From Halomicrobium mukohataei DSM 12286 (GTDB taxonomy: Archaea > Halobacteriota > Halobacteria > Halobacteriales > Haloarculaceae), in the NCBI RefSeq assembly GCF_000023965.1, contig NC_013201.1:60001-92000 (forward strand): a stretch of 32,000 nucleotides of DNA. Direction: 5' to 3'. The position numbers and the translations under genes were made by a program. Positions 4,662 to 32,000 of this stretch are shown here, piece after piece. The notes beneath the pieces were generated by a model. That model was given only the letters and a program-made list of their open reading frames with translations, was not told the DNA's origin and did no database searches. Within the stretch, counting starts at the first letter, position 1. Every line of letters starts with the position of its first letter.

Positions 4662-4663
4662 TT

Positions 4664-16347: not shown

Positions 16348-16593
16348 TCAGGCCACCAGCTTCTGTCGCAGCTCCCGTTCGTCGACGCGGAACTTGAACG
16401 CCGGCCGGTCGTCGACGAGCACGTAGGGGACGCGGTCGCCGTACTCCTCGCGCAGCGACGCCTCGTCGACGTCGACGACTTCGATGTCGACCGACCGAGC
16501 CACCGACTCGGCCACCGTCCGTATCGTCCGGAGCGCGTCGTCACAGAGGTGACACTCCTCCCGGGTGTACACTGTCACTGTCGTGTCCGCCAT
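16348..16593 (-). CDS. Glutaredoxin-like thioredoxin-fold protein (81 aa)
   Basis: An internal ATG of track ORF 16348..16752 gives MADTTVTVYTREECHLCDDALRTIRTV...DRVPYVLVDDRPAFKFRVDERELRQKL, with a CxxC motif after the first beta strand. Confidence 0.75.
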   Translation of the reverse strand: MADTTVTVYTREECHLCDDALRTIRTVAESVARSVDIEVVDVDEASLREEYGDRVPYVLVDDRPAFKFRVDERELRQKLVA

Positions 16594-16754: not shown

Positions 16755-17474
16755 ATGATCTCGTACTGCCACAGCAACGTCGGTCAGCAGCGTTCCGAAA
16801 ACGAGGATGCGTCCCGCTGTGCGTCGCTCGACGACGGGCGGGAACTCGTCGTCGTCGCCGACGGCATGGGGGGCCACCCGAAGGGTGCCGAGGCGAGTGC
16901 AACGGCTGTCGAGCGACTGTTCGAAACGGTCACCTCGGAGACGCCCGAAGACGACGGGCCAGAGGCCGTGCTCGAACGCGGCTTCCGGGCCGCACACGAC
17001 GCCGTGACCGATCTCGCGGCGGGCGAGCGCAAGACGCCGGGGACGACGCTCGTCGCCGCACTCGTCGCGGACGACACCGCGACGATCGCCAACGTCGGAG
17101 ACAGCCGCGCCTACTACGTCGACGACGCACTCCGGCAGGTGACCACCGACCAATCGCAGGTCCAGGAACTCGTCGAGGCGGGCGAGATCACGCCCGAAGA
17201 GGCCACGAACCACCCGATGAGCCACGTGCTGTCCCAGGCGGTCGGGACCGCCGACGACCTCGACGTCGACCTGTACACGCAGTCGCTCTCGGAGGGGTGG
17301 CTCCTGCTCTGTACGGACGGGCTCACCGATCCCGTTCCGGAGGACACGATCGAGGCGACCTGTCTCGACGCCGCGTCGCTCGAATCCGCGGGGACGGCTC
17401 TGATCCGGGAAGCCAACGACCGAGGCGGACCGGACAACGTCACCGTCGGTCTCTGCCGGACCGAAACGGCGTAG
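16755..17474 (+). CDS. PP2C-family Ser/Thr protein phosphatase
   Basis: The ATG at 16755 lies inside track ORF 16617..17474. PP2C motifs are present: NEDA, VVVADGMGGH, ANVGDSRAY, LLLCTDGL, GGPDNVTV. Confidence 0.9.
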   Translation: MISYCHSNVGQQRSENEDASRCASLDDGRELVVVADGMGGHPKGAEASATAVERLFETVTSETPEDDGPEAVLERGFRAAHDAVTDLAAGERKTPGTTLVAALVADDTATIANVGDSRAYYVDDALRQVTTDQSQVQELVEAGEITPEEATNHPMSHVLSQAVGTADDLDVDLYTQSLSEGWLLLCTDGLTDPVPEDTIEATCLDAASLESAGTALIREANDRGGPDNVTVGLCRTETA

Positions 17475-17655: not shown

Positions 17656-19725
17656 TCAGTCGGCGACGAAACAGAGCCCGTCAGCGGCGGCGGGGTAGCC
17701 GGTCGTCCCGTAGCCGTCTTCGGCCAGCCGTTCGAAGGCGGCCCGCACGATGTGTGGGCCGAAGTCGTGTTCGTCGACGACCGCGTGGTGCTGGACGACT
17801 TCGGTCATCGGGTCGTCGACGTAGTCGTCGCGCAGGACCTCGATGCAGTCGGCGACGCGCTCGCTGTCCACCGCACGCGTGAACAGATCGACGTTCTCGG
17901 AGACGAGGCGGTCGTTTCGGTCGTAGATCAGCTCGTTGGACTGGATGTCGACCAGACAGACGCTCACCTGCTGGTCGAACCGGGACCGCGCGGCGTCCTC
18001 GTTCTGGACGAACGCTTCCACGTCGTCGGTCCAGCCGGTGGGTGAGGCGATGCCGATCAGGTGGGTCGTGTCGTTCGACTCGGCGCGGGCGACCGTCTCG
18101 TTGACGACATCGATGAGGTCGTCGATGCCCGCGGGCCGCGCGTCGAAGCCGTTCACGGCGAAGGCTTCGAGGTTGGCGGCGACGACGGCCTCGACGACCA
18201 GTTTCGTCTCCGAGAACGCGACGAACTTGTTCGTCCGCACGCGGTAGGTCGAGAACCGTCCGACCGGGTACCGATCGGCCGTGGTCTCGTCGTCCAGTAC
18301 GTCTGCGACGATCGATCGGTGGTCCCCGGTGAAGTGTCGGCGTCGATCCTCCCAGAACCCCTCCGGGATCTCGAAGCGATCGCCACCGGGGAGCGTCAGG
18401 TGGGTCGCCTCCTCGACGGAGGTCTCGAACCGCGTGACGTAGTCCATCTCGTACAGCCGCGCCACTTGCGCGCGGATCGCCTTCCCGTCGGGCTCCTCGC
18501 GCTGACTCCGGACGGACTCGGCGATCTCTCCGACGCGCTCGTCCAGCTCGTCGACTCGGTCGACCCGCTGTTCGGCCGTCGCGACCCGTTCTTCGAGGTC
18601 GCCGAACTCCCGGTCCAGTCGATCCCCGGTCGTCTCCAGGCGCTCGCGTTCGTTCCGTAACCGCTGGATTTCGGCGCTGAGATCGCCTTTCCGCTCCGAG
18701 AGGCGGTCGAGTTCGTCTTCGAGCAGCGACGCGGCTTTCGACGCGGCCTCGTCCTGTAGCTCCTGGCGGGTCTCCTCGCGGGCCGCCTCCAGCTGCTCGA
18801 TCTGTGCTTCGAGGTCGTCTTCCAGCGTCGAGATCGTGTCGAGTTTCTCCGAGATCTCTCGTCTGTCCGCGGAGCGTTGCTCCGAGAGGGTCGCGATCTG
18901 GTCTTTGATCTCGTCGAGCTCGCCTTCGACGGCGTCCGTGTCGACGCCGCCGGTCGCCATCTCCGACTGGAGTCGGCTCATCTCGGTCCGGAGGGATCGC
19001 TCTTGCTCCTGGAGGCTGTGGTGGACCGTCTCCGAGAGCGACTCCAGCTCGTCCCGTACCGTCGCTTCGATGGCCTCTCGCTCGGATTTCGCGTCCCGGG
19101 CCGCTTCCGCGGCACTGACGATACCCTCGATGGTGTTCGGGAGCCCGTGGTGTTTGATGTAGAGGAAGACGGCCTCGTCGGCCAGTTCGAAGAACTCCTC
19201 GAACTCCCGCTGGAAGTACGAGATCGTCGCGCCGCGGATCTCGTTTGACGACGTGTCCAGCAGCGACTCCCGGAGGTCGGCTTGCGCTTCGAGTTCCTCG
19301 GTGACGAACTGGTGGACCTTCCCGTCCTTGTTCTTGATGTTGGTCTCCAGGTTCTCCTCGTCGATCTGCTTGAACTTCCGGCGGAAGTCGTCGAACTGCC
19401 TGACGAACTCGCGTTCTCCCGCCTCGAACTGGTCGACGAACCCCTTCGACTCGGGCTCGCTCTCGCCTGCCTCCTCGATCGCCGTCGCCAGGAGCAGCTT
19501 CGCGGCCTCGAAGGAGGCCACCTCGTTCTCTTTGGTGGCCTCGGGGATCGACTCCCGGTGTTCGGGGTAGAAGTCCCACTCGTACACCTCTTTGTTCTGT
19601 TCGAGCTGGTTGTACAGGTCTCGTCGGCGCTGTGCCGAGTAGTTCGCTAGTTCGACCAGGTCCTTCTGCAAGACCTGGTGGGCCGGATACGTCAGCTCTT
19701 CGCGTTTGTCTTTGATCGTTCCCAT
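17656..19725 (-). CDS. Large coiled-coil protein of unknown function (689 aa) with globular C-terminal domain
   Basis: ORF track. It has an acidic, halophile-type composition and a long central heptad region (about residues 220-420). No Walker A motif was seen. The C-terminal ~200 aa contain ...FVAFSETKLVV... and ...THLIGIASPTGWTDDVEAFV..., reminiscent of a PD-(D/E)xK/Mrr-like core (weak, by eye). Confidence 0.8.
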   Translation of the reverse strand: MGTIKDKREELTYPAHQVLQKDLVELANYSAQRRRDLYNQLEQNKEVYEWDFYPEHRESIPEATKENEVASFEAAKLLLATAIEEAGESEPESKGFVDQFEAGEREFVRQFDDFRRKFKQIDEENLETNIKNKDGKVHQFVTEELEAQADLRESLLDTSSNEIRGATISYFQREFEEFFELADEAVFLYIKHHGLPNTIEGIVSAAEAARDAKSEREAIEATVRDELESLSETVHHSLQEQERSLRTEMSRLQSEMATGGVDTDAVEGELDEIKDQIATLSEQRSADRREISEKLDTISTLEDDLEAQIEQLEAAREETRQELQDEAASKAASLLEDELDRLSERKGDLSAEIQRLRNERERLETTGDRLDREFGDLEERVATAEQRVDRVDELDERVGEIAESVRSQREEPDGKAIRAQVARLYEMDYVTRFETSVEEATHLTLPGGDRFEIPEGFWEDRRRHFTGDHRSIVADVLDDETTADRYPVGRFSTYRVRTNKFVAFSETKLVVEAVVAANLEAFAVNGFDARPAGIDDLIDVVNETVARAESNDTTHLIGIASPTGWTDDVEAFVQNEDAARSRFDQQVSVCLVDIQSNELIYDRNDRLVSENVDLFTRAVDSERVADCIEVLRDDYVDDPMTEVVQHHAVVDEHDFGPHIVRAAFERLAEDGYGTTGYPAAADGLCFVAD

Positions 19726-19727
19726 TG

Positions 19728-20252
19728 TTAGGCAATCATGTACCCGATCTCCTCTTCGATGAATTCACGGAGAAACTCCGGTGCCTCTCCGAAACCGTCG
19801 ATGACGACGTGGAGTCGGACGGTGTTCTGTTCTCGTTCTCGGATGTCGTACTGGATCTCGGCTCGTCCCTTCTTCGTGTAGACGGCCCAGAGACTCTCGC
19901 CGTCGGTCGTCGACCCCTGGTCGACGGCCTTTCGCTTTTTCATGATCGATTCCATCGCCCACTCGACGCGTTCGGCCTCGACGTCGTCGAACGTCTCGTC
20001 GATCGTCGCCTGGACCTGCGTCGCCTCGGTGTCGACGCGGTTCAGTTCGTACGCCGACAGCTCCTCTTCTGGCACCTTCGCCGCCAGCTGGTCGTACAGC
20101 TCGTCGATGTCGACGTCTCTCACGACGCGGGACATGCCGTCGAGGGACTCGATCGTCCCGTCCTCCCAGTTGTCGAGCAGGTACTCCGCGCGCTTTCGCT
20201 CGCGCTCGTCTTCGTAGTCGACGACGACGAGGTACGCACCGTCCTCGCTCAT
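19728..20252 (-). CDS. Hypothetical acidic protein (174 aa), translationally coupled to the 689-aa gene
   Basis: An internal ATG of track ORF 19728..20453 gives MSEDGAYLVVVDYEDERERKRAEYLLDNWEDGTIESLDG... Its stop codon lies 2 nt before the ATG of the downstream gene. A TATA-like TTTATAG (20369-20375, coding strand) is upstream. Confidence 0.65.
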   Translation of the reverse strand: MSEDGAYLVVVDYEDERERKRAEYLLDNWEDGTIESLDGMSRVVRDVDIDELYDQLAAKVPEEELSAYELNRVDTEATQVQATIDETFDDVEAERVEWAMESIMKKRKAVDQGSTTDGESLWAVYTKKGRAEIQYDIREREQNTVRLHVVIDGFGEAPEFLREFIEEEIGYMIA

Positions 20253-20487: not shown

Positions 20488-21202
20488 TCACTCGCCCAGG
20501 TCGATCACGTCGTCCAGCGTCCACTCGTCGTCGGCCCCTTCGAAATCGAGCGTCGGTTCGCCGTCGGCCTGTTCGAGCGGTTCGGGATCGAACGACGGAC
20601 CGTCGTCCCCGTCGAACGGCCCCGGCATCGGCTCCGGGTCGAGCGACCAGTCGGGGAGGTACCGATCGTCGATCTCCAGTGCGTCTGCGACGGCGGCGAG
20701 ATACTCGTCGGCCCGGCGCAACTCGACGCCGCAGTTCGCCTGTGCCCGGCTCACTCGTTGCTGTACGGCCTGGGGCGCTTCGCCCTCGACCGCACGGAGC
20801 GCGCGGACGACCTGTGTCGCGGTGAGTCGCCGCCCGTGCCTGTCGCGCCTTTCCGCTCGCTGCTCGTAGTTCTGCGTGAGCCGTGTGGCTCTCTCCTCGT
20901 GTCGTTCCCGCTCGTGGCCGTCGGCGTCGGCACCCGCCCGAAGCGTCTCCTCGAATCGCTCCTCTATAGTAACAATTGAAACGATTTACACACCGATCGC
21001 ACTGCTATCGTGCGATCGGGTGTGCATTGATTTTCAATGGCTACTATAGCTCGGCCATCTCCTCACCGACGAGTTCGTACTCGACCGCCTGCTCGCGTTC
21101 GAACAGTTCGAGGCGCTTTGCCTCCAAATCGGCGTCCAACAGCCGCTCGTCACGCGCGCCGAACTCGCTCTCGATCCACTCGCCGAGTTCCTGCCGGAAC
21201 AT
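20488..21202 (-). pseudogene. Hypothetical acidic protein gene (~208 aa if repaired) split by an 86-bp palindrome
   Basis: My own translation gives a 52-aa ORF at 21202->21044 (MFRQELGEWIESEFGARDERLLDADLEAKRLELFEREQAVEYELVGEEMAEL*). A downstream frame stays open from 20985 to 20488 with coding-like GC3, but has no ATG/GTG/TTG before the GTG at 20752 (...EERFEETLRAGADADGHERERHEERATRLTQNYEQ...). Deleting 88 nt (20965..21052) fuses them in frame. Confidence 0.5.
20964..21049. mobile_element. 86-bp palindromic element bounded by CTATAG...CTATAG (single copy in window)
   Basis: The left arm is CTATAGTAACAATTGAAACGATTTACACACCGATCGCAC. The reverse complement of the right arm is CTATAGTAGCCATTGAAAATCAATGCACACCCGATCGCAC. 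The loop is 7 nt. CT(C) is duplicated at both flanks. It is unrelated in sequence to the 79-bp family. Confidence 0.65.
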
Positions 21203-21235
21203 GGCACTCGGTTGCAGTGACTCCCATGTGAACTA

Positions 21236-21279
21236 CCCCACCCTACTCGCCAGCTACCGCTGGCTCCTTGAGGGTGGGG
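21236..21279. other. Nested GC-rich hairpin in a 285-bp non-coding region
   Basis: The hairpin reads CCCCACCCT-actc-GCCAGC-tacc-GCTGGC-tccttg-AGGGTGGGG, with a 9-bp outer stem and a 6-bp inner stem. It lies between the stop of kinase 1 (21497) and the start of the split gene (21202). Confidence 0.4.
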
Positions 21280-21496
21280 CTTCCTGCTTCTAAGACGCGC
21301 TTTGCAGATACAAGTGTATCTACAGTGAGCGCAGTCTCCACAGGCGTTCCTTCGGAGTGTCCCACTCCTAGCTGGCTCAGACCGCGAGAGAGGATATTGA
21401 TCGCCGCGTTCGAGTCTCTATCTGTCTAATACTGGCGGCTGTCCTCTCGTTCGTGTATTCCCCACCACGGGGCAGCGAAGTCGCTTTCCACGGCTG

Positions 21497-22639
21497 CTAC
21501 GGCGTGTCGTCGACGAGATCGTCCAGCGCGTCGGCGAGGTAGACCGCCCGACTGTACCGCTCCGAGGGGGCCGGTGCGAGCGCGGTCTGTACGACCTCGT
21601 CGACCGACGACGGCAGTTCTGGGCGCAGCTCCGACGGCGGCGTCGGCAGCGACCGCTCGGCGACCGACTCGCCCTCGGCTCCCGTCGCCGTCGGCACCCG
21701 TCCGGTCAGCAGTTCGTAGAGCACCGCGCCGAGCTGATAGATGTCCGTCCGGTGGTCGAGTTCCCGGTCGGACTCGAACTGCTCGGGGGCAGCGTAGCGC
21801 GGATCGAGCGCTGCCGGATCGCTGCCGCCGCGCTGAGTCTTCGCGACGCCCCAGTCGCCGATCTTGGGGAGGTCCCACGCTGCCTCCGGCGTCGGGGCGA
21901 AGAGGACGTTTTCGGCCCGGAGATCGAAGTGCCGGACCCCGAGGTGGTGTACGTCGGCGAGGGTCTCGGCCAGCACGCTCGCGATCCACAGCCCCTCGTC
22001 GATCGCGAGCCCGTCGTCGGCGTCGCGGAGGCGCTGGCGCAGGTCGCCGCCGGTCAGACGCTCCATCGCGATCCAGGGTCGGGGAACCTTCCCCCAGTCG
22101 ACGACGCTCACGACGTGGCGGTGGTCGTCACACTGGGCCCACAGCTTCCCCGCTTCGACGAACCGGTCGATCGTCGCTCCGGTCAGCGTCCCCTCGTCGG
22201 ACAGGCGCTTGACCGCGAGCGCCGCGTCCGGTTCGGACTCGACTGTCGCAGCCCTGACCTCAGCGAATCCGCCGTCGCCGATGCGCTCGCCGATCGTCAG
22301 CTCGCTGTAGGTGACCGACTCGGGCAGCGACGGCTCGACCGGCTCGGGCACCCTCTCGGCGGGTCTGGCGACCGTCGTCGGGGTGTCGGGCTCGTCGTTC
22401 GCTGCGGTGTCTGGGTCCTGTGGTTCGGCTGTCTGCTGTGAGACTGCCTCGTCGATCCCGACCGCCAGGTGACACTCGCCCTCGTAGATTTCGGTCGAGT
22501 AGACCCCGACGACCGCCCGGCCCCCTTCCCCTTCCAGGCTGTGGACGAGCACCGGCTCGGACTCGACCGTCGTCGTCTCGAAATCCCTCGAGAACTGTCC
22601 TGTCGTCGTCACGAACTGCGGCGGCTCGTCGTCCGTCAT
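21497..22639 (-). CDS. Hanks-type Ser/Thr protein kinase (K1) with ~100-aa unassigned N-terminal domain
   Basis: 380 aa. Motifs: IGDGGFAEV (Gly loop), LAVKRL, HFDLRAENVLF (catalytic loop, non-RD, K->R), KIGDWGVA (DWG in place of DFG), YAAPEQ. Confidence 0.85.
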   Translation of the reverse strand: MTDDEPPQFVTTTGQFSRDFETTTVESEPVLVHSLEGEGGRAVVGVYSTEIYEGECHLAVGIDEAVSQQTAEPQDPDTAANDEPDTPTTVARPAERVPEPVEPSLPESVTYSELTIGERIGDGGFAEVRAATVESEPDAALAVKRLSDEGTLTGATIDRFVEAGKLWAQCDDHRHVVSVVDWGKVPRPWIAMERLTGGDLRQRLRDADDGLAIDEGLWIASVLAETLADVHHLGVRHFDLRAENVLFAPTPEAAWDLPKIGDWGVAKTQRGGSDPAALDPRYAAPEQFESDRELDHRTDIYQLGAVLYELLTGRVPTATGAEGESVAERSLPTPPSELRPELPSSVDEVVQTALAPAPSERYSRAVYLADALDDLVDDTP

Positions 22640-22934
22640 CGCGTGCTCCGATGGAAACCGGCGGTTCCGACGAGGCCTGTTCCGAACGACGTTGCGAGCA
22701 TTCTGTCGTCGCCACTGTTTCCGGGCCAGCGTCTCAACTCTTCCGCTTCGTGGAGAGTTCTGGTTTTAACATCGTCCACTGGTTACCCACACCATGGTCG
22801 CTAACTTCGAAAATATCGAGGCCCGGAGGTTCGTCGGGGTCGCCGTCCTCACTGTGGATGGGGTGATCGATGTCACCGAGGAGTGAGCCGTTCGGCGACC
22901 GTCGAACGGCGTCGGGCGAGCAGAGGTGTGACTC

Positions 22935-25757
22935 GTGAGCGACACCGACGAGGACGAAGTCCAACTCGACGAGGCCCGGGCGTTCCTCGCGACGCTGCCC
23001 GACGACCCGGCCGCCTACACCGAGGCCGACCGGTGGCGCATCGAGGAGTTGCTGCTGTCTGACAACCACGGCGTCGTCCACGTCACGGCGCAACTGGTCA
23101 GAGAGGCGACGGCACGGGACGCAGAGGCGATGGCACCGCTGGTACAACCGCTGATCGACGCGGTCGTCCACACCGACGGGCTCCGCCGTCCGGAACTGGT
23201 GGCCGCGATCGCGGAGTTCGATCGCACACGAGTCGCGGCGGCCGATCCCCAGTTCGACCGGACTCCGGTCGCGCGGGCCGACCCCGTCGGCCAGTACCAC
23301 CGAACGCTGGCCGACACCGAAAACGAGGAGCTCGTCCGCTCGAAACGGGCGGCAGCACTCGCGGCGATCTACGACCTCTTTCCCCAGGAAGTCCGGGACA
23401 CGGTCCCGACGCTGCTCGACTGTCTGGAACCGGCCGAGGACGATGTCGGCCTGCTCTGTGAGGCCGCCGGGAAGGCCCTGGGGACGATCGCGGGCAAAGA
23501 CGATCAGGTGCGCGCACGGGTCATAGAACGGTTCGAGCGCGAACTCGACCGCGGGTCGCTCCCGAACAAAGGCGTGGTGTACGGCGTGGGGAACCTCGTG
23601 ACTTGCCGCTCGGACGCGGGGTTGACGCTCGTCGAGCCGCTGGTCGAGGCGACGAACCGGGCCGGCGTCGACAGTGCCGCCCACGAGGCGGAGCGCTGGC
23701 ACGTCGTCAGCGCGCTCGAGACGATCGCAGAGGAGCGCCCGGCTCTTCTCGATCACCACACAGACCGGCTCACGCTGCTCCTGACCGACGACGAGACGAT
23801 GGTCCGGAAGCAGGCGATCGGCCTGTTCGAGACGCTCGGCGAGACGGAGCCGGCCGTCCTCGACCGCGTCGCCGACGACCTCGTTGCCGCCGCCGACGAT
23901 CCCGACCCGAAGATACGACGCGCGGTCGTGAGCGCTCTCGCGCCGCTGGAGTCGCGACTGGCCGAGGCGGCCGAACCTGCGGCCCGCGCGCACCTCGCGG
24001 CTCTGGAGTCGGCGGCGGATTTCCGGAAGAGCACGGTGCTGGGCGAGCTGGGCCGGCTGGCCGAGCACTGTCCGGACCTGGTCGTCGGCGGGCTGGTCGA
24101 GATCGTCGCCCACCTCGATCACCAGTCGTGGGGCGTCAGGTCGAGTGCAGCGTCCGCGCTCGGCAGGCTGGGTAGCGAACGGCCCGACGCCGTTCGCCCG
24201 CTGGTCGAGCGGGACGCGTCGGGACTGATCGCTTCGACCGGGTCGACGCCCCTCCTCGGTCTCCTCGACGACGAGCAGGACTCGGTCCGTGCGGACGCTG
24301 TCCACGCCCTCGGACGGATCGGCGCGGCCGATCGGGAACTGGCCGACGTCGTGTTTCCAGCCGTTCTCGGGGCCGTCGACGACGGTGACTCACACGTCGA
24401 GCAACGGGCGCTCCGGGCTTTCGGACGGATCGGCGCGGCCCATCCCGACGCGGTGACCGACGATCACGTCTCGACGCTCGTCACCAGCGTGGGGCACGTC
24501 AGCGAGACGGTCAGAGCGGCGGCGGCCGAGGCGATCGGCGCGCTCGCGGCGAGCGGTCTGGATCTGCGTGTCGCTCGCGATCCGCTCGTCGACCTGCTCG
24601 ACGACTACTATCCCCGTCCCCGCGTCGAAGCCTGCGAGTCGCTCGCGGCACTCGGCGCGGAGCCGGCGGCTGCACGGATCGCGCCACTCCGCACACACTA
24701 CGACGACGACGTTCGGGAGGCCGCCCAGGCGGCACTCGCGGCGCTCGACTACGACCCCGACGGTTCGCCCGAGTCGGACTCGAAGTCGTCGGCTGACGCG
24801 GGCTCCGGTTCGGAGCGCCCGGCGGGAGCACGGTCCGAGGCGACCGGTCGCCGGGTCCGCGACGACCGGTCTGAGACCACCAGCGAGGCCGCTTCGACGG
24901 CGATACCGACCGGCCAGCCGACACAGGCCCCGTCGCTGTCGCTGGACTACGGCGACGTGGAGACCGGTCGAGTCGTCGGCCGTGGCGGCAACGCAGTCGT
25001 CCGGGAGGGGACCGTCGAGATCGACGGGGAGTCGCGGACGGTCGCCGTCAAAGAGCCCGTCACCGAGGGGACACAGACGGCAGACGACATCGCCGCCTTC
25101 GAGCGCGAGGCGCGACAGTGGGACCGACTCTCGGACCGTGCTCACGTCGTCGGCGTCGTCGACTGGGACGTCGACCCCCTCCCCTGGATCGCCCTGGAGT
25201 ACATGGACGGGGGCTCGCTGGCGGCCAGAGTCGGCGAGTGTGACTACCGCCAGACGCTGTGGATCTGCGAGCGCGTCGCGAACGCGGTCCGACACGACCA
25301 GACCGGGATGGCACACCTCGATCTCAAACCCGCGAACATCCTCTTCGAGTCGACGCCCGACGGCGTCTGGGACGTGCCGAAGGTCGCCGACTGGGGAATC
25401 GCCCGACTGCTGAACGAGCACGGTGCGACTGCCGGCGGGATGACCGCGACGTACGCGGCACCGGAACAGTTCGACCCCGACACCTACGGGACGCCCGACA
25501 GCAGGACGGACATCTACCAGCTCGGGGTCGTCCTCTACGAGCTGCTCGTGGGCGAGCCGCCCTTTACCGGCTCCGACGTGGACGTGATGCAGAGCGTTCT
25601 GTCCGACGAGCCCGCACTGCCGGGCGAGCGAGTCGACGGTCTCCCGGACGGGATCGACGACACCGTCGAGACGGCCCTCGCGACGGACCCCGAGCGCCGC
25701 TTCGAGACGATCGAACGGATGCAGTCGCGGCTGGGAGCCCACCTCGACGAGCTGTAG
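22935..25757 (+). CDS. HEAT-repeat protein fused to C-terminal Hanks-type Ser/Thr kinase (K2)
   Basis: 940 aa with a GTG start. There are about 8 or more HEAT/PBS-lyase-like repeats (VRKQAIGLFETLG, IRRAVVSALAPL, VRSSAASALGRLG, VRADAVHALGRIG, VRAAAAEAIGAL...). Kinase motifs: VGRGGNAVV, VAVKEP, HLDLKPANILF, VADWGIA, YAAPEQ. Confidence 0.9.
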   Translation: MSDTDEDEVQLDEARAFLATLPDDPAAYTEADRWRIEELLLSDNHGVVHVTAQLVREATARDAEAMAPLVQPLIDAVVHTDGLRRPELVAAIAEFDRTRVAAADPQFDRTPVARADPVGQYHRTLADTENEELVRSKRAAALAAIYDLFPQEVRDTVPTLLDCLEPAEDDVGLLCEAAGKALGTIAGKDDQVRARVIERFERELDRGSLPNKGVVYGVGNLVTCRSDAGLTLVEPLVEATNRAGVDSAAHEAERWHVVSALETIAEERPALLDHHTDRLTLLLTDDETMVRKQAIGLFETLGETEPAVLDRVADDLVAAADDPDPKIRRAVVSALAPLESRLAEAAEPAARAHLAALESAADFRKSTVLGELGRLAEHCPDLVVGGLVEIVAHLDHQSWGVRSSAASALGRLGSERPDAVRPLVERDASGLIASTGSTPLLGLLDDEQDSVRADAVHALGRIGAADRELADVVFPAVLGAVDDGDSHVEQRALRAFGRIGAAHPDAVTDDHVSTLVTSVGHVSETVRAAAAEAIGALAASGLDLRVARDPLVDLLDDYYPRPRVEACESLAALGAEPAAARIAPLRTHYDDDVREAAQAALAALDYDPDGSPESDSKSSADAGSGSERPAGARSEATGRRVRDDRSETTSEAASTAIPTGQPTQAPSLSLDYGDVETGRVVGRGGNAVVREGTVEIDGESRTVAVKEPVTEGTQTADDIAAFEREARQWDRLSDRAHVVGVVDWDVDPLPWIALEYMDGGSLAARVGECDYRQTLWICERVANAVRHDQTGMAHLDLKPANILFESTPDGVWDVPKVADWGIARLLNEHGATAGGMTATYAAPEQFDPDTYGTPDSRTDIYQLGVVLYELLVGEPPFTGSDVDVMQSVLSDEPALPGERVDGLPDGIDDTVETALATDPERRFETIERMQSRLGAHLDEL

Positions 25758-25758
25758 C

Positions 25759-27225
25759 TTAGCGCTGTGCCCGGAGCTGGGACTGGAGGCGCTCGACGGT
25801 GCTGAACCGCTCCGCTGGCTGCTTTTCCAGCGCCTTCATCACGGCGTCGCTGACGGCCTGCGGGACGCGATCGTCGACCGCCGCCGGTGGCTCGGGCTCC
25901 TCGGTGAGGATCGCGTTCATCAGCGCGACGCCGTTGCCCTCGAAGGGCGGCCGGCCGGTCAGCACCTCGTACATGAGGACGCCGAGCTGGTAGATGTCCG
26001 TCTTGCTGCTGGGGTCGCCGAACTCGTCGGCGTCGAACTGCTCGGGGGCGGCGTAGGTCGGCGACATGCCCTCGACGGTCGGTTGGTGTTCCTTGAGCGT
26101 GCGTGCCAGCCCCCAGTCGGCGACCTTCGGTACGTCCCAGCTCCCCTCTCCGGTCCGGCGAAACAGGACGTTCTCGGGCTTGAGATCCAGGTGGAGGACG
26201 CCGGTCTGGTCGTGGCGGACTCCCTGCGCGATCCGTTCGCACGTCCAGACGGCCTGCTCGATGGAAAACTCCGAGAGCCGCTCGCGCAGCGTGCCGCCGT
26301 CCATGTACTCTATCGCGATCCAGGGCTTGGGCCGCGTCCCGCTGTCGACGACGCCGACGACGTGGTCTCGGGGCGACAGCAGCGACCACGTCTCCGCCTC
26401 CTGCTCGAAGCTCTCTACCACCGACGACGTGATCGTTCCCTCGAAGTTCGGTACCTTCAGCGCGACCGTCGTCGTCTCTCCGTTGACGCGGTACTGTGCC
26501 TCGTGGACGACGCCGCTGCCCCCGTGTCCGAGCTGCCCCTCGATCTCGAAGTCGGCGTACGCAAGCTCTTCTCGGGCCGGACTCTGAACGCTCGCCACGT
26601 CGGGCACCATCGAGGCCGTATCGACGTTCGTTGCGGTCGACGACTGCGTGTCGGCCGACGCCTCGGCGGCTGCCGTCGATTCGGTCTCCCCGGTGTTCTC
26701 GGCCGCCGATTCCGTCTCGGTCGCCGATTCCGTCTCGGCCGTCGACGCGGATTCGCTGCTCGCTTCGCCCGGCGACGAGTCGGCCGCCTGCCGTCCTTCC
26801 GTCTGTGCTGTTGCCCGGTCTGCTGTCCCTTTCGTCTGTCTCTCTCCTTCGAGGGCATCCGCTCCCGTCGCCTCGATCGACTGCCCCTCGTCCGAGCCGA
26901 AGGCGGCTGCACACGCCCGGAGTCCGGACTGAAGCTCCTCGACTCCGGCGTTCGCCGCTTCGATCGTCCCGACAACGTCACCGGTCGTCACCGCGCCCTC
27001 TGCGGTCGGCTCGATGAGGTTCTCCTCTTCCAGCACTCGCAGCGAGTATCGGAGCTCGTTGTGGGGGTGGTCCAGCACGTCGGCGAGATCGGTGATGCCC
27101 GCGGGCTCCCGTTCGAAGACGGTTCGGAGCACGGTCAGATTCCGCCCGGTGAGCTCGGCCTCGCTCTCGACCGTCTCGAACATCTCCGTGAGCGTCGGCG
27201 TCTCCTCCTCCTCGGAATCCGTCAT
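25759..27225 (-). CDS. Winged-helix (HTH) domain fused to Hanks-type Ser/Thr kinase (K3)
   Basis: An internal ATG of track ORF 25759..27345 gives MTDSEEEETPTLTEMFETVESEAELTGRNLTVLRTVFEREPAGITDLADVLDHPHNELRYSLRVLEEENLIEPT..., a wHTH-like domain. This is followed by an acidic T/E/S/A linker. Kinase motifs: LGHGGSGVV, VALKVP, HLDLKPENVLF, VADWGLA, YAAPEQ. A CTATTA box lies 25 nt upstream of the ATG. Confidence 0.85.
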   Translation of the reverse strand: MTDSEEEETPTLTEMFETVESEAELTGRNLTVLRTVFEREPAGITDLADVLDHPHNELRYSLRVLEEENLIEPTAEGAVTTGDVVGTIEAANAGVEELQSGLRACAAAFGSDEGQSIEATGADALEGERQTKGTADRATAQTEGRQAADSSPGEASSESASTAETESATETESAAENTGETESTAAAEASADTQSSTATNVDTASMVPDVASVQSPAREELAYADFEIEGQLGHGGSGVVHEAQYRVNGETTTVALKVPNFEGTITSSVVESFEQEAETWSLLSPRDHVVGVVDSGTRPKPWIAIEYMDGGTLRERLSEFSIEQAVWTCERIAQGVRHDQTGVLHLDLKPENVLFRRTGEGSWDVPKVADWGLARTLKEHQPTVEGMSPTYAAPEQFDADEFGDPSSKTDIYQLGVLMYEVLTGRPPFEGNGVALMNAILTEEPEPPAAVDDRVPQAVSDAVMKALEKQPAERFSTVERLQSQLRAQR

Positions 27226-27338
27226 TATCACAGCATCCGCGTGCCAAAAGTAATAGCTTGTCCCGCGTGTCTGGTGCCCGTTCGGGGTTTCGACGCGCCT
27301 CTTTCGACGGTGGTCCGTCGCGTTTCCGAGCTCAATTG

Positions 27339-27353
27339 TCTCCACTTTGGAGA
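27339..27353. promoter_or_regulatory. Palindromic motif TCTCCA-CTT-TGGAGA, copy 3 of 3
   Basis: Perfect 6+3+6 palindrome, extended to GTCTCCA/TGGAGAC. It lies in the divergent region between K3 (start 27225) and the small membrane-protein gene, 29 nt upstream of the TTTAT box at 27383-27387. Confidence 0.55.
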
Positions 27354-27408
27354 CTCAATATTACATCTCTAAAAGCCAAATCTTTATGTGTCTGGTGCCC
27401 GTCGGACG

Positions 27409-27714
27409 ATGTACTGGGAGCGATCCAACATGGCACTATCACTGTGGACGCTGGCGCTGGCACTGCTCGTCAACCTCGTACTCGGTGCGGTCCTCGTACT
27501 GGGCGTGTTCACGCTGATGGAGCAGCGCATCCTGCTGGGGGCCATCGCGGGGCTGGTCATCGGCGGCATCGTCGTCTACGCAGAGGCGACCGTCGGCGCA
27601 CAGCTGTTCTCGCTGACGTTCGAAGAGAAGCGACTGATCGTCGTCCTGGCGGGCATCGGCGCGGCGCTGGGAATCTCGGGGACGATGCTGACCATCGAAC
27701 CGGAGATCAACTGA
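27409..27714 (+). CDS. Small membrane protein (101 aa, about three TM helices)
   Basis: ATG at 27409, inside track ORF 27388..27714 and ~24 nt downstream of TTTAT. The sequence is MYWERSNMALSLWTLALALLVNLVLGAVLVLGVFTL...GIVVYAEAT...VVLAGIGAALGISG... Confidence 0.6.
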   Translation: MYWERSNMALSLWTLALALLVNLVLGAVLVLGVFTLMEQRILLGAIAGLVIGGIVVYAEATVGAQLFSLTFEEKRLIVVLAGIGAALGISGTMLTIEPEIN

Positions 27715-27793
27715 TACGGAAACTTGTAGTTGCGTACCGGTGAGCGTCTATCCCGTAGCGACACTCACCGGTAAATGCCTACAACCGTCCGTA
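27715..27793. mobile_element. 79-bp palindromic MITE-like element, copy 3, flanked by TGA direct repeats
   Basis: The element reads TACGGAAACTTGTAGTTGCGTACCGGTGAGCGTC, then a loop, then GACACTCACCGGTAAATGCCTACAACCGTCCGTA. TGA at 27712-27714 is the stop codon of the upstream gene, and TGA is repeated at 27794-27796. Confidence 0.7.
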
Positions 27794-27878
27794 TGACGCC
27801 GTCGGCCGTCACTGCCTCACGAAAACGTTCAACACCCGTTCCGACGTACTCTCTGAGAGATGGGGCTTCGCTGAGAGC

Positions 27879-30770
27879 ATGATTGTCGATGCACTGCAAC
27901 GGGCGTCTCGTCTCCGATCCAAAGCCGACTCCGAGCGCCACACCGTCGCTACAGACGAGATCGAGGAACTCACTGCACTGCTGGAGTATCGCCGACCGAC
28001 GGCTCCAGCGTCGCCCGCGGAATCGGCCGAGGCTCCTCTGGACGACGGGGACGTTCGCGCCGGGGCGGCTCTGGCACTTGCGGCCGTCGCTCGGGACCGA
28101 CCGGACGCCGTCGTTCCTGCCGTGGATGGTCTCAGACAGTGTCTCACCGACACCCATCCGGGTTTGCGTGGGAACGCCGCTCTCGCACTCGCTGCGGTCG
28201 CCGAGGCACGTCCCGAGGAGATCCGACCGGCGGTTCCCGGCCTCCGGACGCTCCTTTCCGAGGCGCGTACCGAGACACGCGCCACCGTGACGCCAGCGGA
28301 GTATCCCGAATCGATCCGGCCGCTGGTCGCGGAGCTCCGGTCGCTGCGAAACGACGAGCGTGACACGGCGCGTGCCGCCGGTGCCATCGCGCTCAAAAAC
28401 GTCGCGAGAGCCGCTCCCGGATCGGTCGTCACCGCCGTCGACGCTCTTCTGACACTCCTCGACGAGGAGAAAGCCGCGACGCGCACCGCGGCCGTCGAGG
28501 CGCTGAAAAACGTCGCCAGCGAACGACCGGCTGCGATCGAACCGGCCGTCGACGACCTGCAGACCTCACTCGACGACGACGACCGGCGCGTACGCGAAGC
28601 GGCCGAACGGACGCTTGCGATGCTCGACGGTGCGTCCACAGAGAGCGCCGCCGTCGAAGACGCCGGTCGGACCGAGCCGAACCGACAGCACCAACGAACC
28701 ACGACTATGGACTCTGCTCACCAACCGGATCTCGACGAGGGAGAAGAGACGCCGTCGATGTCGCTCGACCCGTCCGCACTGCGCCACGACGACGTCATCG
28801 GCCGCACCGCGACGACGGTCGTGCATCGGGTCCGTCACCCCGGCGAGGACGGGCCGGACGGCATCGCCGTGAAACACCCCGCTCGACACGGGACGCTGAC
28901 CGAGGAGACCATCGACGGGTTCGATCACGAGGCCCGGCAGTGGGCCGGCCTCGACGACCACCCGAACGTCGTCTCGGTGATCGACTGGGGGTACGACCCG
29001 CTCCCCTGGCTCCGCGGCGATGCGTCGGTACCCTGGATCGCCACGGAGGTCGTCGACGGACCGGACCTTCGCGCCGTCGCCGAGGACGCGACGGTCGAGC
29101 AGTCGCTCTGGACCGCACAGCGACTCGTCGACGCGGTCTGGCACGCCCACCACCGCGGCGTCGTCCACCTCGACCTGAAGCCGTCGAACGTCCTGTTTGC
29201 CCCCGGCGAGCGGTGGCCGATTCCGAAGGTCGCCGACTGGGAGCTCTCCCGCTCGCTGCTGGGCCAGGGGGCCGCCGTCGGCATCTCGACGCCCGGCTAC
29301 TGTGCGCCCGAACAGGACGGCCAGGGCACGACGGACCAGCGGACCGACCAGTTCCAGCTCGCGATCGTCCTCTACGAGCTGTTCACCGGGACGCATCCGT
29401 TCGTCGACGACCTCGCCGCCACCCCACAGCGAGAGCGCATCGAGCGCGTCCTCGACGCCGATCACAGGTCGCCCAGCGAGCGCCGTCCGGAGTTGCCGGC
29501 CGCTCTCGACGACGTGTTCGAGCGCGCACTGGCGCGGGACCCGGCCGATCGGTACGAGGCGACGATCGACCTCCGTCGCGCCCTGGAGCGGATCGCCGAG
29601 GAGTGGGAGTCGACGCCGGACGACCCGCAGAGCGCGACCGAGCCCGCGACGGCAGACCGCGACCCCACCCCGACGACCGACCACTCCGCGCCGGAACCGA
29701 CGAGTACGGACCGCTCGCGGCCGACGGCCGACGACCGCGACTGGCCGACCCTCCACGGGAGCGCGTCGCGCTCCGGCCCTCGACAGCGTGCGGTCGGCCC
29801 CTCGCCACCCGTCACCGAACGCTGGACGTTCCAGGCGGGCGATTCGATCAGGGGCGGCCCGACCGTCGTCGACGACACGCTGTACGTCGGGAGCGACGAT
29901 GCGGCCGTCTACGCACTGGCGACGGAGTCCGGTGCGACGCGGTGGACCTACGAGACCGACGATCCGGTCCAGTCGCCGGCGACCGTCGTCGACGGGACGG
30001 TGTACGTCGGCAGCCACGACAAGCGCGTGTACGCGCTGGACGCCGAGACCGGAGCCGAGCGGTGGGTGGCCGAAACGGACGGGATGGTCGACGCTGCGCC
30101 CGCGGTGGTCGACGGGACGGTGTACGTCGGCAGCTACGACAAGCACGTGTACGCGCTGGACGCCGCGACCGGGGCCGAGCGGTGGGTCGTCGAGACCGAC
30201 GGCAAGACCGGCGCGGTCCCCACCGTCGTCGACGGGACGGTGTACGCCTCCTGTGGAACCGGCGTCCTCGCCGCGCTGGACGCCGACTCCGGCGAGCGCC
30301 TGTGGCGCTACCCCACCGGTGGACCGGCGATGTCGACGCCAGCGGTCTCTGACGGCGTCCTCTACGCGGGCACCAACGACGGGCGCGTCGTGGCACTCGA
30401 CGCCGACACGGGCACCGAGCGCTGGACGTTCGACGCCGGTGGGAACGGCCGGTCGGCACCGGCGATCTGCGGTGACACCGTGTACGCGGGCAGCATCGAC
30501 GGCTACGTTCTCGCGATCGACGCGGACAGCGGCACCGAACGCTGGCGCTACGACACGGCGGGACAGATCAACGGTGCGCCGGTCGCCGCCGACGACACGC
30601 TCCTGGTCGGGAGCTGGGACGAGTGTCTGTACGCGCTGGACGCCGCGACCGGCGACGAGCGGTGGCACTACCGGACCGGCAGTCTCATCGACGGATCGCC
30701 GGCAGTGGCAGACGGGACGGCGTACGTCGCCACGCACGACGGCGTCGTGTCCGCGCTCGGCGAGGAGTGA
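27879..30770 (+). CDS. HEAT repeats + kinase-like domain + 8-blade PQQ-type beta-propeller (K4)
   Basis: 963 aa. N-terminal HEAT repeats (LRGNAALALAAV, ARAAGAIALKNV, TRTAAVEALKNV, VREAAERTLAML). Kinase core: IAVKHP, HLDLKPSNVLF, YCAPEQ, but a degenerate Gly loop (IGRTATTVV) and DWE in place of DFG/DWG. Eight repeats of the ...G(T)VYVGS.D..VYALDA.TG.ERW type follow. Confidence 0.9.
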   Translation: MIVDALQRASRLRSKADSERHTVATDEIEELTALLEYRRPTAPASPAESAEAPLDDGDVRAGAALALAAVARDRPDAVVPAVDGLRQCLTDTHPGLRGNAALALAAVAEARPEEIRPAVPGLRTLLSEARTETRATVTPAEYPESIRPLVAELRSLRNDERDTARAAGAIALKNVARAAPGSVVTAVDALLTLLDEEKAATRTAAVEALKNVASERPAAIEPAVDDLQTSLDDDDRRVREAAERTLAMLDGASTESAAVEDAGRTEPNRQHQRTTTMDSAHQPDLDEGEETPSMSLDPSALRHDDVIGRTATTVVHRVRHPGEDGPDGIAVKHPARHGTLTEETIDGFDHEARQWAGLDDHPNVVSVIDWGYDPLPWLRGDASVPWIATEVVDGPDLRAVAEDATVEQSLWTAQRLVDAVWHAHHRGVVHLDLKPSNVLFAPGERWPIPKVADWELSRSLLGQGAAVGISTPGYCAPEQDGQGTTDQRTDQFQLAIVLYELFTGTHPFVDDLAATPQRERIERVLDADHRSPSERRPELPAALDDVFERALARDPADRYEATIDLRRALERIAEEWESTPDDPQSATEPATADRDPTPTTDHSAPEPTSTDRSRPTADDRDWPTLHGSASRSGPRQRAVGPSPPVTERWTFQAGDSIRGGPTVVDDTLYVGSDDAAVYALATESGATRWTYETDDPVQSPATVVDGTVYVGSHDKRVYALDAETGAERWVAETDGMVDAAPAVVDGTVYVGSYDKHVYALDAATGAERWVVETDGKTGAVPTVVDGTVYASCGTGVLAALDADSGERLWRYPTGGPAMSTPAVSDGVLYAGTNDGRVVALDADTGTERWTFDAGGNGRSAPAICGDTVYAGSIDGYVLAIDADSGTERWRYDTAGQINGAPVAADDTLLVGSWDECLYALDAATGDERWHYRTGSLIDGSPAVADGTAYVATHDGVVSALGEE
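29985..30224 (+). repeat. Two tandem 120-bp units (adjacent propeller blades) with near-identical first ~85 nt
   Basis: Comparing lines 30001-30060 and 30121-30180 gives 4 mismatches in 60 nt. Other blades are far more divergent at the DNA level. Confidence 0.7.
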
Positions 30771-30826
30771 ACCACGGTCGCTGTCGTCGCCAAGCTTGAT
30801 GTAGCTCTCTGGCCAACACCTGGCCA

Positions 30827-32000
30827 ATGACTGATCCTCGGATTCCCGACCGCTCGGCGGTCGCGAGTCCGCCGCGTCGGGACCTCGATTACCGGACGGT
30901 CGACGCCGCGAAGTCCCCGCTCGACGCCGGTGGACAGGCGCTCGTCTACGAGGCGGCCGTCCCGGACGACGAGCCGCCGGATCGGATCGCTCTCAAGGAG
31001 CCCGCAGACCCCGGAACGCTGACCGGTGACGTGGTCGAGACGTTCCTGGAAGAGGCCCGTACCTGGGAGCTGGTCGACCGCCGCGAGCGCGAGAAGCACC
31101 GGTGGGCGGACTCCGAGCACGTCGTCGGCGTGATCGACACCGGCGAGCGCCTGCCCTGGATCGCGATGGAGTACATGGACGGCGGCGACCTCGCCGAGCG
31201 CCTCGACGGCACCGACGGGCTGGCACTGGACGAGGCCCTGTGGGTCGGCGAGTGTGTCTGTCGCGGGATCGAACTCGCCCACAACTACGGGGTCGTCCAC
31301 CTCGACGTCAAACCGTCGAACGTGCTGTTTCGAACCACGCCGGGCGACGCCTGGGACGTGCCGAAGATCGCCGACTGGGGGCTCGCGCGCTCGCTCTCGG
31401 AACGCACGCGAACGATGGAGGGGCTCTCGGTCACCTACGCCGCACCCGAACAGTTCGAACCCGACGAGTTCGGCGATCCGGACATGCTGACCGACGTGTA
31501 CCAGGTCGGAGCACTGGTCTACGCGCTGCTCACCGGTCGCCCGCCCTACGTCGGCAACCGGATGAGCGTCATGCACGATGTCGTGTACGGTGATCCGCCA
31601 GCACCGCCGAGCGCGCACCGCGACGACGCGTCTCCGGCACTCGACGCCGTCGTCTCGACCGCCCTCGAAACGAGCAAGCGCGACCGCTACGACGCCGTTC
31701 AGATCTTCAGGCAGGCACTCAGGGCGGCCCGGACGGATCGCGCGCTCCCGCCGATCGTCGCCGACCGCCTCTCGGCAGACGACCGCTCGCCCCGTGTCGA
31801 CGCGGCCGAGAGCGCCTCCACGGACACTGGTTCGACCGACGCTGCCTCCAGCGACGGCGACTCGACAGACGCCGACACCGGCGACCCCGACGAGGACCTG
31901 ACGTTCAGGGAGCGCGTCGAGCAGATCAGGGCGGAGCGATCCGAGGACGACGGGTCTCCGGCAGACGACGACACGACGAACACCTCTGTGGCGGACGAGT
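30827..32000 (+). CDS. Hanks-type Ser/Thr protein kinase (K5) with acidic low-complexity C-terminal extension; partial, runs off window
   Basis: My own translation from the ATG at 30827 gives MTDPRIPDRSAVASPPRRDLDYRTVDAAKSPLDAGGQALVYEA...RIALKEP...VVHLDVKPSNVLF...KIADWGLARSL...YAAPEQ...LLTGRPPY..., followed by a D/S/T/A-rich tail. The frame is open to position 32000, so it is not in the ORF track. Confidence 0.85.
   Translation, partial: MTDPRIPDRSAVASPPRRDLDYRTVDAAKSPLDAGGQALVYEAAVPDDEPPDRIALKEPADPGTLTGDVVETFLEEARTWELVDRREREKHRWADSEHVVGVIDTGERLPWIAMEYMDGGDLAERLDGTDGLALDEALWVGECVCRGIELAHNYGVVHLDVKPSNVLFRTTPGDAWDVPKIADWGLARSLSERTRTMEGLSVTYAAPEQFEPDEFGDPDMLTDVYQVGALVYALLTGRPPYVGNRMSVMHDVVYGDPPAPPSAHRDDASPALDAVVSTALETSKRDRYDAVQIFRQALRAARTDRALPPIVADRLSADDRSPRVDAAESASTDTGSTDAASSDGDSTDADTGDPDEDLTFRERVEQIRAERSEDDGSPADDDTTNTSVADE

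Follow-up and report, generated by a model that had tools for sequence, protein, structure and literature searches.

A plasmid-borne array of non-RD Hanks-type kinases near ESCRT-like genes in Halomicrobium mukohataei

The endosomal sorting complex required for transport (ESCRT)-like systems of Euryarchaeota are known from comparative genomics only. In their catalogue of these systems, Makarova et al. (2024; mBio 15:e00335-24, PMC10936438) report serine/threonine kinases and phosphatases in many loci of the 'Main' type and in some of the Halo_FHA type, and propose that the kinases and the phosphatase serve the sorting of phosphorylated proteins by the ESCRT machinery. Here we analyse a stretch of 32,000 nucleotides (positions 60,001 to 92,000 of NC_013201.1, plasmid pHmuk01 of Halomicrobium mukohataei DSM 12286; hereafter the window), in which five genes for Hanks-type protein kinases, K1 to K5, occur together with ESCRT-like genes. 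On balance we think it probable, with moderate confidence, that K1–K5 serve as the phosphorylation arm of an ESCRT-like system for membrane remodelling and sorting, encoded on the plasmid and of the 'Halo_FHA/Main' type of PMC10936438.

A link between kinases and the ESCRT system is already published, as a prediction, in that paper. Its Table S2 lists H. mukohataei NC_013201.1 47476–87714, which is the same locus, with an entry that comprises Vps4, three ESCRT-III proteins, an FHA-CdvA-like protein, arCOG09748, arCOG08177, a PP2C phosphatase and K1–K3. The window locus has the traits of the Main and Halo_FHA loci: a neighbourhood of Vps4 and ESCRT-III genes, arCOG09748 together with arCOG08177, and, beside Vps4, an FHA-CdvA-like gene, the Halo_FHA signature. 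In the parts of PMC10936438 that were available to us we found no mention of arrays of five or twelve kinases, of non-RD or DWG motifs, of kinase solubility, of fusions derived from housekeeping proteins or of a conserved small membrane protein. A search of the literature for haloarchaeal kinases of the Hanks or non-RD type, and for PP2C, yielded nothing specific. What appears to be new is the range of protein-binding modules fused to kinases of this family: HEAT repeats, PQQ propellers, winged helix–turn–helix (wHTH) domains, Hsp70–GrpE, EF1A domains 2/3 (D2/D3), cold-shock domains (CSD) and GCV_H.

The five kinases and their fused modules

The five genes, numbered from left to right, are as follows.

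21497..22639, minus strand: K1, 380 aa; Pkinase 92 bits; 64-aa leader, Pro/Asp/Thr-rich linker, kinase domain at aa ~105–380
22935..25757, plus strand: K2, 940 aa; Pkinase 97 bits; HEAT repeats at aa ~240–620, acidic linker, kinase domain at aa 666–940
25759..27225, minus strand: K3, 488 aa; Pkinase 118 bits; weak winged-helix-like N-terminal domain, long acidic Ser/Thr/Glu-rich linker, C-terminal kinase domain
27879..30770, plus strand: K4, 963 aa; Pkinase 86 bits; HEAT repeats, central kinase domain, linker, eight-bladed PQQ-type beta-propeller
30827..32000 (window end), plus strand: K5; Pkinase 92 bits; N-terminal kinase domain, acidic tail

An earlier note on this DNA had placed five kinase open reading frames (ORFs) at these positions, and all five, at 86–118 bits, pass the Pfam gathering threshold for Pkinase (31.7 bits). 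Gene calls on the public contig agree with the six-frame ORFs; in these calls the complete K5 gene encodes 539 aa and ends at window-equivalent position 32446, ∼446 bp past the window. The GC fraction at third codon positions (GC3) of the called frames is 0.84–0.86. The kinase domains share 35–54% identity in pairwise alignment, and by Pkinase profile and catalytic residues K1–K5 are Hanks-type, non-RD kinases; the description of them as one paralogous family with differing non-kinase parts holds. The VAxK lysine, the alpha-C glutamate, the catalytic Asp and Asn and the Mg-binding Asp of DWG are kept in all five proteins, as is APE; the catalytic loop reads HFDLRAEN in K1 and HLDLKPxN or HLDVKPSN in K2–K5, which makes every one of them non-RD.

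Three further signatures that had been given as common to the five proved to be less uniform. DWG in place of DFG is present in K1, K2, K3 and K5, and K4 has DWE; YAAPEQ is present in four of the kinases and reads YCAPEQ in K4; and the VVGV(V/I)D...PWIAxEYMDGG block is exact in K2, K3 and K5 only, with variants in K1 and K4. The Gly loop of K4 is also degenerate (GRTATTVV). HLD and DWG are the rule across the haloarchaeal family members sampled, with HLD dominating that clade, against HRD and DFG in the bacterial relatives. DW was part of one of the two patterns used for scanning, which makes the DWG count partly circular; HLD was in neither pattern. No transmembrane segment was found in K1–K5 (highest 19-residue Kyte–Doolittle mean, 1.32). 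Judged from these features of the sequence, K1–K5 are soluble and probably catalytically active Ser/Thr kinases.

The HEAT repeats of K2 and K4 and the eight-bladed propeller of K4, both seen earlier in the translations, are matched by Pfam (PQQ_2, 224 bits), and the translation of K4 shows eight G..(R/L)W repeats. The winged helix of K3 is a weaker call, with HVO_A0114 at 24.2 bits against a cut-off of 27.6 and HTH_20 at E = 8e-4. The tail of K5 is acidic, as had been described, and holds 2.6–2.8 copies of a 111–117-bp (37–39-aa) repeat that starts at ∼31892. An unassigned N-terminal domain of ∼100 aa had been ascribed to K1, and this assignment does not stand. In assembly GCA_012726095.1 the K1 orthologue has 569 aa; its first 64 and last 301 aa match K1 at 89–91%, and it contains an in-frame block of 189 aa with a CDC48_N domain (57 bits, cut-off 35) that is absent from the window K1. 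Because this block is missing by comparison with the sister strain, the supposed domain of K1 is a leader followed by a linker.

Fused domains vary across the family as well as between strains, as the presence or absence of CDC48_N in K1 illustrates. Pfam matches above threshold in family members include four CSD copies, two aEF1A domain 2/3 units, wHTH with Fer2, a near-complete Hsp70, GrpE, the helical N-domain of ribosomal stalk P1/P2, GCV_H and CDC48_N. Most of the accessory modules (HEAT, beta-propeller, wHTH) are scaffolds that bind proteins or nucleic acids and not classical small-ligand sensors, and a membrane span is absent from all five proteins; the suggestion that the modules are putative ligand-binding parts of a sensor-diversification locus is not supported.

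The window is 100% identical to positions 85420–117419 of the H. mukohataei JP60 plasmid NZ_CP039376.1. Close versions of it occur on a plasmid of Halomicrobium sp. LC1Hm (∼92% identity), in assembly GCA_012726095.1 (91–95%) and on a 2.96-Mb scaffold of H. katesii (97%); 74 bp of the gap between the small membrane-protein gene described below and K4 (27721–27794) are missing from the H. katesii alignment. Comparison of strains, which had been proposed as a check for variation in copy number and domains, brought out the difference in domain content of K1, with the five ORFs all intact in three strains at 91–97% nucleotide identity. Against two sister strains, the ratio of non-synonymous to synonymous substitution rates (dN/dS) is 0.11–0.36 in the kinase domains (0.24 in that of K1), which are under purifying selection. 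It is 0.3–1.0 in linkers and accessory regions and highest in the K1 remnant and the linkers, the N-terminal remnant of K1 reaching ∼1.0 against H. katesii; dN/dS gave no sign of diversifying selection in the accessory regions of K1–K5.

These data bear on whether K1–K5 could be decaying paralogues or pseudokinases that have no current function on a dispensable plasmid. The DWE motif and degenerate Gly loop of K4 and the loss of a domain from K1 could be read in this way, as could the adjoining ESCRT-III paralogue broken by a remnant of an insertion sequence (IS), the apparent frameshifts in some H. katesii paralogues and the truncated thermosome gene that adjoins K5. However, the frames are intact in three strains, kinase-domain dN/dS is low, GC3 is 0.84–0.86 and the catalytic Lys, Glu, Asp, Asn and Asp are kept in all five, and we therefore regard decay as very improbable indeed.

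The ESCRT-like neighbourhood and its recurrence

The ESCRT-like genes and the other components of the module in the window are the following.

2..400, minus strand: N-terminal ~133 aa of a Vps4-like AAA ATPase (arCOG01307, WP_012807435), truncated by the window start; tblastn 83% to the AAA protein of locus L080
437..1081, minus strand: ESCRT-III/Snf7-family protein (arCOG07402); coiled coil, N-terminal M..RDW..G, acidic tail; family alignment; hmmsearch E = 1.8e-57
1137..1805, minus strand: second ESCRT-III/Snf7-family paralogue (arCOG07402); hmmsearch E = 8e-50
10266..10940, plus strand: third ESCRT-III-family paralogue; hmmsearch E = 1.5e-47
16755..17474, plus strand: PP2C Ser/Thr phosphatase (arCOG05302); NCBIfam Stp1/IreP 220.6 bits; Pfam PP2C and PP2C_2
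17656..19725, minus strand: arCOG09748 protein, 689 aa; helical/coiled-coil N-terminal part, unassigned alpha/beta domain, C-terminal winged-helix-like domain
19728..20252, minus strand: arCOG08177 protein, ~174 aa; Cas2-like ferredoxin-fold domain, then helix-grip (TBP/START-like) domain
20488..21232, minus strand: fourth ESCRT-III-family gene, broken; its fragments are annotated as ORFs of 88 aa and 52 aa; blastp clustering; hmmsearch E = 4e-9 and 7.7e-6
21213..21440, no strand assigned: IS (transposase-end) fragment, ~230 bp; ~80% identity to transposase regions in >140 haloarchaeal plasmids
27409..27714, plus strand: small, very hydrophobic (probable membrane) protein, ~94–101 aa, between K3 and K4; dN/dS 0.13–0.19

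The genes for arCOG09748 and arCOG08177 lie 1.2 kb from K1, and those for Vps4 and the three intact members of the ESCRT-III family 11–21 kb from it; the PP2C gene, which the earlier note had also recognized, is 4.0 kb to the left of K1. Just outside the window, the FHA-CdvA-like gene (arCOG13166, WP_012807434) stands beside Vps4 at NZ_CP039376.1 83710–84420 (hmmsearch E = 4e-72).

This association of family kinases with ESCRT-like genes recurs: the ESCRT-like locus adjoins such kinases in no fewer than seven further genera or lineages of haloarchaea. In kinase-anchored loci searched by tblastn, arCOG09748, arCOG08177, the small membrane protein and PP2C recur beside kinases in Haloglomus, Halobaculum, Halovenus, A07HR60 and Halonotius, and parts of the ESCRT locus stand beside family kinases in A07HN63 as well. 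When loci were anchored on homologues of arCOG09748 or arCOG08177, family kinases were present within 10 kb in five of the six, and four of those five also had PP2C. Three further partners are constant on contigs anchored on the module: a single-domain AAA ATPase, one to three coiled-coil proteins of ∼200–220 aa with M..RDW..G and an acidic tail, and a protein of ∼225–240 aa with the N-terminal domain pattern G...SR(K)...S.N...G. PP2C orthologues adjoin the ESCRT module in loci L012, L041, L078, L080 and L082, and homologues of the small membrane protein, which has no arCOG in the table of PMC10936438, lie beside ESCRT-III and arCOG08177 genes in L012, L016/L041, L078, L079, L081 and L083.

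In Halonotius the linkage is tight: the gene order is ESCRT-III, Vps4, FHA and then a kinase ORF directly after the FHA gene, with overlapping stop-to-stop frames. In the metagenome-assembled genome (MAG) Halobacteriales QS_8_69_26 a family kinase carries at its N-terminus an FHA-like domain of the arCOG13166 type, fused in frame (L034, 3438–5330). The same module is found with four kinases on the plasmid of Halarchaeum sp. CBA1220 (CP054709.1 365612–387699; L078); one of these kinases carries four cold-shock domains, two carry HEAT repeats and one carries two aEF1A domain 2/3 units, and two Metallophos phosphatases lie beside the PP2C.

Structural models of two partners are consistent with this placement. 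In PMC10936438, arCOG09748 is described as consisting of helical/coiled-coil parts, a globular domain of unknown kind and a winged helix at the C-terminus, and arCOG08177 as an inactivated Cas2-like domain followed by a TBP/helix-grip domain. An AlphaFold2 (AF2) model of the C-terminal part of arCOG09748 (predicted local distance difference test score (pLDDT), 71) matches winged-helix proteins in Foldseek over its last ∼70 aa only, with no significant match for the whole domain. The arCOG08177 model (pLDDT 88.9) has a ferredoxin-like and a helix-grip domain, for which Foldseek gives matches at E ∼1e-3 to folds of the ACT and START/Bet v 1 types; none of 52 homologues has a Pfam domain. The models agree with the published folds and are consistent with the assignment of both proteins to that system. 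A plant PYL–PP2C-like pairing of arCOG08177 with the phosphatase, suggested by the START-like fold of the former, was considered and dropped, the TM-scores being 0.27–0.40 and PMC10936438 assigning the domain to the TBP/adaptin-appendage type of helix-grip fold.

A rival explanation is that K1–K5 are general-purpose cytoplasmic signalling kinases, an expansion for stress or nutrient sensing, whose nearness to ESCRT genes reflects the clustering of accessory genes on a megaplasmid, with PP2C as their shared phosphatase. In its favour, most family members are solitary, with no ESCRT part within 10 kb; the family is also large (771 proteins at E <= 1e-30 among scored candidates), unrelated redox, metal and transport operons lie in the plasmid region between the ESCRT blocks, and IS elements rearrange the locus between close strains. 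Nevertheless, this explanation does not account readily for the recovery of kinases, and in four cases of PP2C, from five of six loci anchored on non-kinase genes in several genera, for the FHA–kinase fusion and the tight FHA–kinase pair of Halonotius, or for a single 79-kb stretch that holds all 12 kinases of the plasmid and every ESCRT part. We consider it possible though somewhat unlikely.

Several observations weigh against assigning K1–K5 to the ESCRT-like system. Some concern the distribution of the genes. ESCRT parts lie within 10 kb in only ∼10–12 of 51 kinase-anchored haloarchaeal loci, so that most family members are not adjacent to them, and one of the loci anchored on arCOG09748 or arCOG08177 (L081) has no kinase in the sequence covered. 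The ESCRT genes of the plasmid are in two blocks ∼16 kb apart, split by a molybdoenzyme operon and redox genes. The operon (window 1995–8205) encodes TorD-like, NrfD-like and 4Fe-4S subunits and an 836-aa molybdopterin oxidoreductase and is adjoined by a DmsR/HTH_10-type regulator; the redox and sulfur-handling cluster (window 13802–16593) encodes a 354-aa protein with four DUF2249 domains, a single-DUF2249 protein, TusA and a glutaredoxin-like protein. In H. katesii, synteny ends at 21425, beyond which lie IS1595 debris and then trpD/E/G, and the K1 side there adjoins these rather than arCOG08177 and arCOG09748.

Others concern the identity of the proteins and their treatment in the catalogue. 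Features of the sequences had suggested Vps4, with an MIT-like N-terminus, ESCRT-III and FHA. Searches of Pfam and of PDB sequences did not confirm homology to ESCRT-III or MIT: no informative Pfam match at E <= 5 was obtained with the ESCRT-III-like, FHA-like and arCOG08177 proteins, and the profile of the ESCRT-III-like family found only generic coiled coils among PDB sequences, with no detection of Snf7. The profile of the FHA-CdvA-like N-domain matched in PDB only the FHA proteins OdhI and GarA, over one region and at a non-significant E = 0.15–1.4. Because our own Pfam and PDB tests were weak or empty, the ESCRT-III, MIT and FHA assignments are taken mainly from PMC10936438. For the AAA protein, a Pfam scan at E <= 5 gave a weak Vps4_C match (E = 0.03), and a full-length homologue matches the Cdc48 D2 and Vps4 structures. 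Table S2 of PMC10936438 enters K1 as arCOG03682 without marking it as a component of the system, and labels K2 'HEAT repeats containing protein' and K3 (arCOG01345) 'predicted transcriptional regulator'; the listed neighbourhood stops before K4, and K4 and K5 are not included.

The third ESCRT-III-family gene of the window lies within a stretch of 45% GC (10001–11000), against 58–73% elsewhere in the window; a separate, recent acquisition is suggested.

The twelve kinases of the plasmid

With a profile made from the five kinase domains, 12 kinase ORFs are found on the plasmid, which measures 222 kb; they all lie at 53.7–132.9 kb. K1–K5 are the middle of this series, and the 79-kb stretch that it spans contains every ESCRT part. 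The seven other kinases have the following architectures.

P1: near-complete Hsp70, GrpE and kinase
P2: HEAT–kinase
P3: kinase–PQQ
P4: kinase–wHTH–Fer2
K6: kinase only
K7: kinase–PQQ
K8: HEAT (weak)–kinase

The product of NZ_CP039376.1 53800–57276, a protein of 1158 aa, is annotated 'GrpE' and is a fusion of near-complete Hsp70 (529 bits), GrpE and a family kinase.

In a neighbour-joining tree of 111 kinase domains the haloarchaeal sequences form one clade apart from the bacterial ones, and the kinases of the plasmid are scattered inside that clade. The nearest plasmid paralogues of K5 are P4 (66%) and K7 (61%), that of K4 is P3 (55%) and that of K1 is P2 (43%), all outside the array. K2 and K3 are the sole mutual best paralogues within it (54%), and K3 has closer relatives (64–65%) in other sequence sets. 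Since the nearest paralogues are mostly outside the array, K1–K5 are not a recent local burst; on the evidence of the tree and identities, we conclude that they are an old assembly of several subfamilies. Of the tandem expansion with domain shuffling that had been proposed for the locus, the variation in fused domains and the K2/K3 relationship are borne out, but local expansion is not, given where the closest relatives of K1, K4 and K5 lie.

Other genes adjoin the kinases of this region. Directly after K5 (NZ_CP039376.1 117859–122566) come a thermosome fragment that overlaps the K5 stop, TnpB, a restriction endonuclease and Fic, followed by K6 and K7. The thermosome gene was considered as a functional partner of K5 and dropped; it is a 278-aa C-terminal fragment followed by TnpB and is more likely to be debris. 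Directly after P2 and P3 (NZ_CP039376.1 72895–80187), genes for a MoxR-like ATPase, a vWA protein and a HEAT protein of 1485 aa form a cluster that resembles MoxR–vWA ternary systems, and a PIN/AbrB pair is also among the neighbours. In Bacteria, a parallel arrangement is seen in Myxococcota and other MAGs (L058, L061, L054, L068 and L075), with three or four large tandem Hanks kinases of the RD type, several of them with an adjoining PP2C.

The composition of this region bears on a further explanation, in which the locus is a conflict or immune system. Its non-RD kinases would carry 'bait' domains taken from host machines, and disturbance of these would lead to mass phosphorylation and so to dormancy or abortive infection. 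K1–K5 are non-RD, and in plants and animals kinases of this class are a mark of innate-immune receptors. Fusions of housekeeping origin lie above Pfam threshold (Hsp70 and GrpE, aEF1A domains 2/3, four CSD, GCV_H, P1/P2, CDC48_N, Fer2), and the locus is plasmid-borne and patchily distributed, with a restriction endonuclease, Fic, TnpB, PIN/AbrB and MoxR–vWA–HEAT genes as neighbours. However, the PADLOC and NCBIfam defence models match the generic kinase domain only, at scores far below their cut-offs and with partner genes absent, and a profile scan of viral contigs gave only generic kinases of 23–34% identity and no close relatives, so that virus defence, one of the roles that the earlier note had left open, has gained no specific support. 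Furthermore, the conserved module contains no recognizable effector gene, its conserved partners being genes for membrane remodelling and not for nucleases or toxins, and the accessory regions, with dN/dS of 0.3–1.0 that is highest in the remnant and linkers, show no sign of diversifying selection. An immune role is, in our judgement, quite improbable.

Proposed mechanism and comparison with described systems

If K1–K5 are the phosphorylation arm of an ESCRT-like system, each kinase would dock by its own binding module on a different set of cellular proteins and then phosphorylate that set. The docking modules would be the HEAT solenoids of K2 and K4, the PQQ propeller of K4, the winged helix of K3, the repeat tail of K5 and, formerly, CDC48_N in K1. 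Phospho-threonine marks made in this way would be read by the FHA-CdvA-like protein encoded beside Vps4, which would link the marked proteins to ESCRT-III filaments, with Vps4, arCOG09748, arCOG08177 and the small membrane protein acting alongside these, and the single PP2C would reset the marks. The kinases themselves would be controlled by docking or localization; because K1–K5 are non-RD, a class that typically does not rely on it, phosphorylation of the activation loop is probably not needed. We infer the coupling to ESCRT from the neighbourhood and from the FHA–kinase fusion, and likewise infer catalytic activity, substrates, the reading of marks by FHA and a vesicle or sorting role.

A more far-reaching version of this mechanism, which is tentative and in our view unlikely, makes the HLD/DWG kinases a modular client-tagging set, with modules borrowed from or mimicking core machines, and has phosphorylated clients pass through the FHA-CdvA-like protein to ESCRT-III/Vps4 for export or sequestration. 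The tagging modules may comprise Hsp70 with GrpE, CDC48_N, aEF1A D2/D3, cold-shock domains, glycine-cleavage H, the P1/P2 N-domain, ferredoxin, adaptin-like HEAT repeats and beta-propellers; by its module each kinase would bind one defined class of clients, such as ribosomes, RNA or misfolded proteins held by chaperones. Alternatively, this anatomy could represent integrated decoys in virus sensing.

If the kinases do select and mark cargo, phosphorylation would act in ESCRT sorting where eukaryotes use ubiquitin, and fused modules such as Hsp70–GrpE and EF1A D2/D3 would predict substrates directly, thereby making the published hypothesis testable. The locus provides the handles: a dozen soluble kinases with differing modules, one PP2C and one FHA-CdvA-like reader, on the plasmid of a haloarchaeon that can be cultivated. 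Should the kinases be no more than signalling genes that share the plasmid, they would constitute an ordinary lineage-specific kinase family.

The logic of a kinase, a PP2C phosphatase and an FHA reader that together gate the assembly of a large machine with an AAA+ ATPase is shared with PpkA–PppA–Fha1 of type VI secretion and with PknB–PstP–FhaA/B of mycobacteria. Bacterial Hanks kinases of such modules are usually RD kinases with DFG and often membrane-spanning sensors. The window system differs from these modules in its ESCRT-III/Vps4-like machine and in having many kinases per reader. Membership of the PknB/Stk1 PASTA kinases was rejected, with scores of 124–162 bits against 450, alignment to the kinase domain only and no transmembrane segment. 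An archaeal precedent for the regulation of a cell-surface machine by kinases and FHA is the archaellum regulatory network of Sulfolobus (ArnA with FHA, ArnB with vWA, the kinases ArnC and ArnD, and phosphatases), although its target machine is another one, it has no array with variable fused modules and its kinases are not closely related to those described here.

Other likenesses are confined to parts of the proteins. The actinomycete kinases of the AfsK type have the kinase-then-PQQ-propeller architecture of K4, K7 and P3, whereas K4 has an additional N-terminal HEAT domain and a non-RD/DWE core; with 194 bits in NCBIfam AfsK against a cut-off of 1300, K4 was rejected as a member. The anti-phage kinase systems (PD-T4-6, Stk2, MADS Mad6 and BREX PglW) have the Hanks-type kinase domain in common with K1–K5, and the PADLOC models align there only; membership was rejected on NCBIfam scores of 63–100 bits against 460 for Mad6 and 48–56 against 990 for PglW, and on the absence of partner genes.

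The closest described relatives remain the serine/threonine kinases and phosphatases of the Main and Halo_FHA ESCRT loci (PMC10936438), with which the window has in common the locus itself, the partner set and the proposal of marking by phosphorylation. According to that paper, kinases typical of the Main clade are membrane-anchored and combine a transmembrane segment with Ig-like repeats and a PCI-like domain, features that are typical and not defining. K1–K5 are unlike them in being soluble proteins with HEAT, PQQ and wHTH modules, and in their number, five in the window and 12 on the plasmid.

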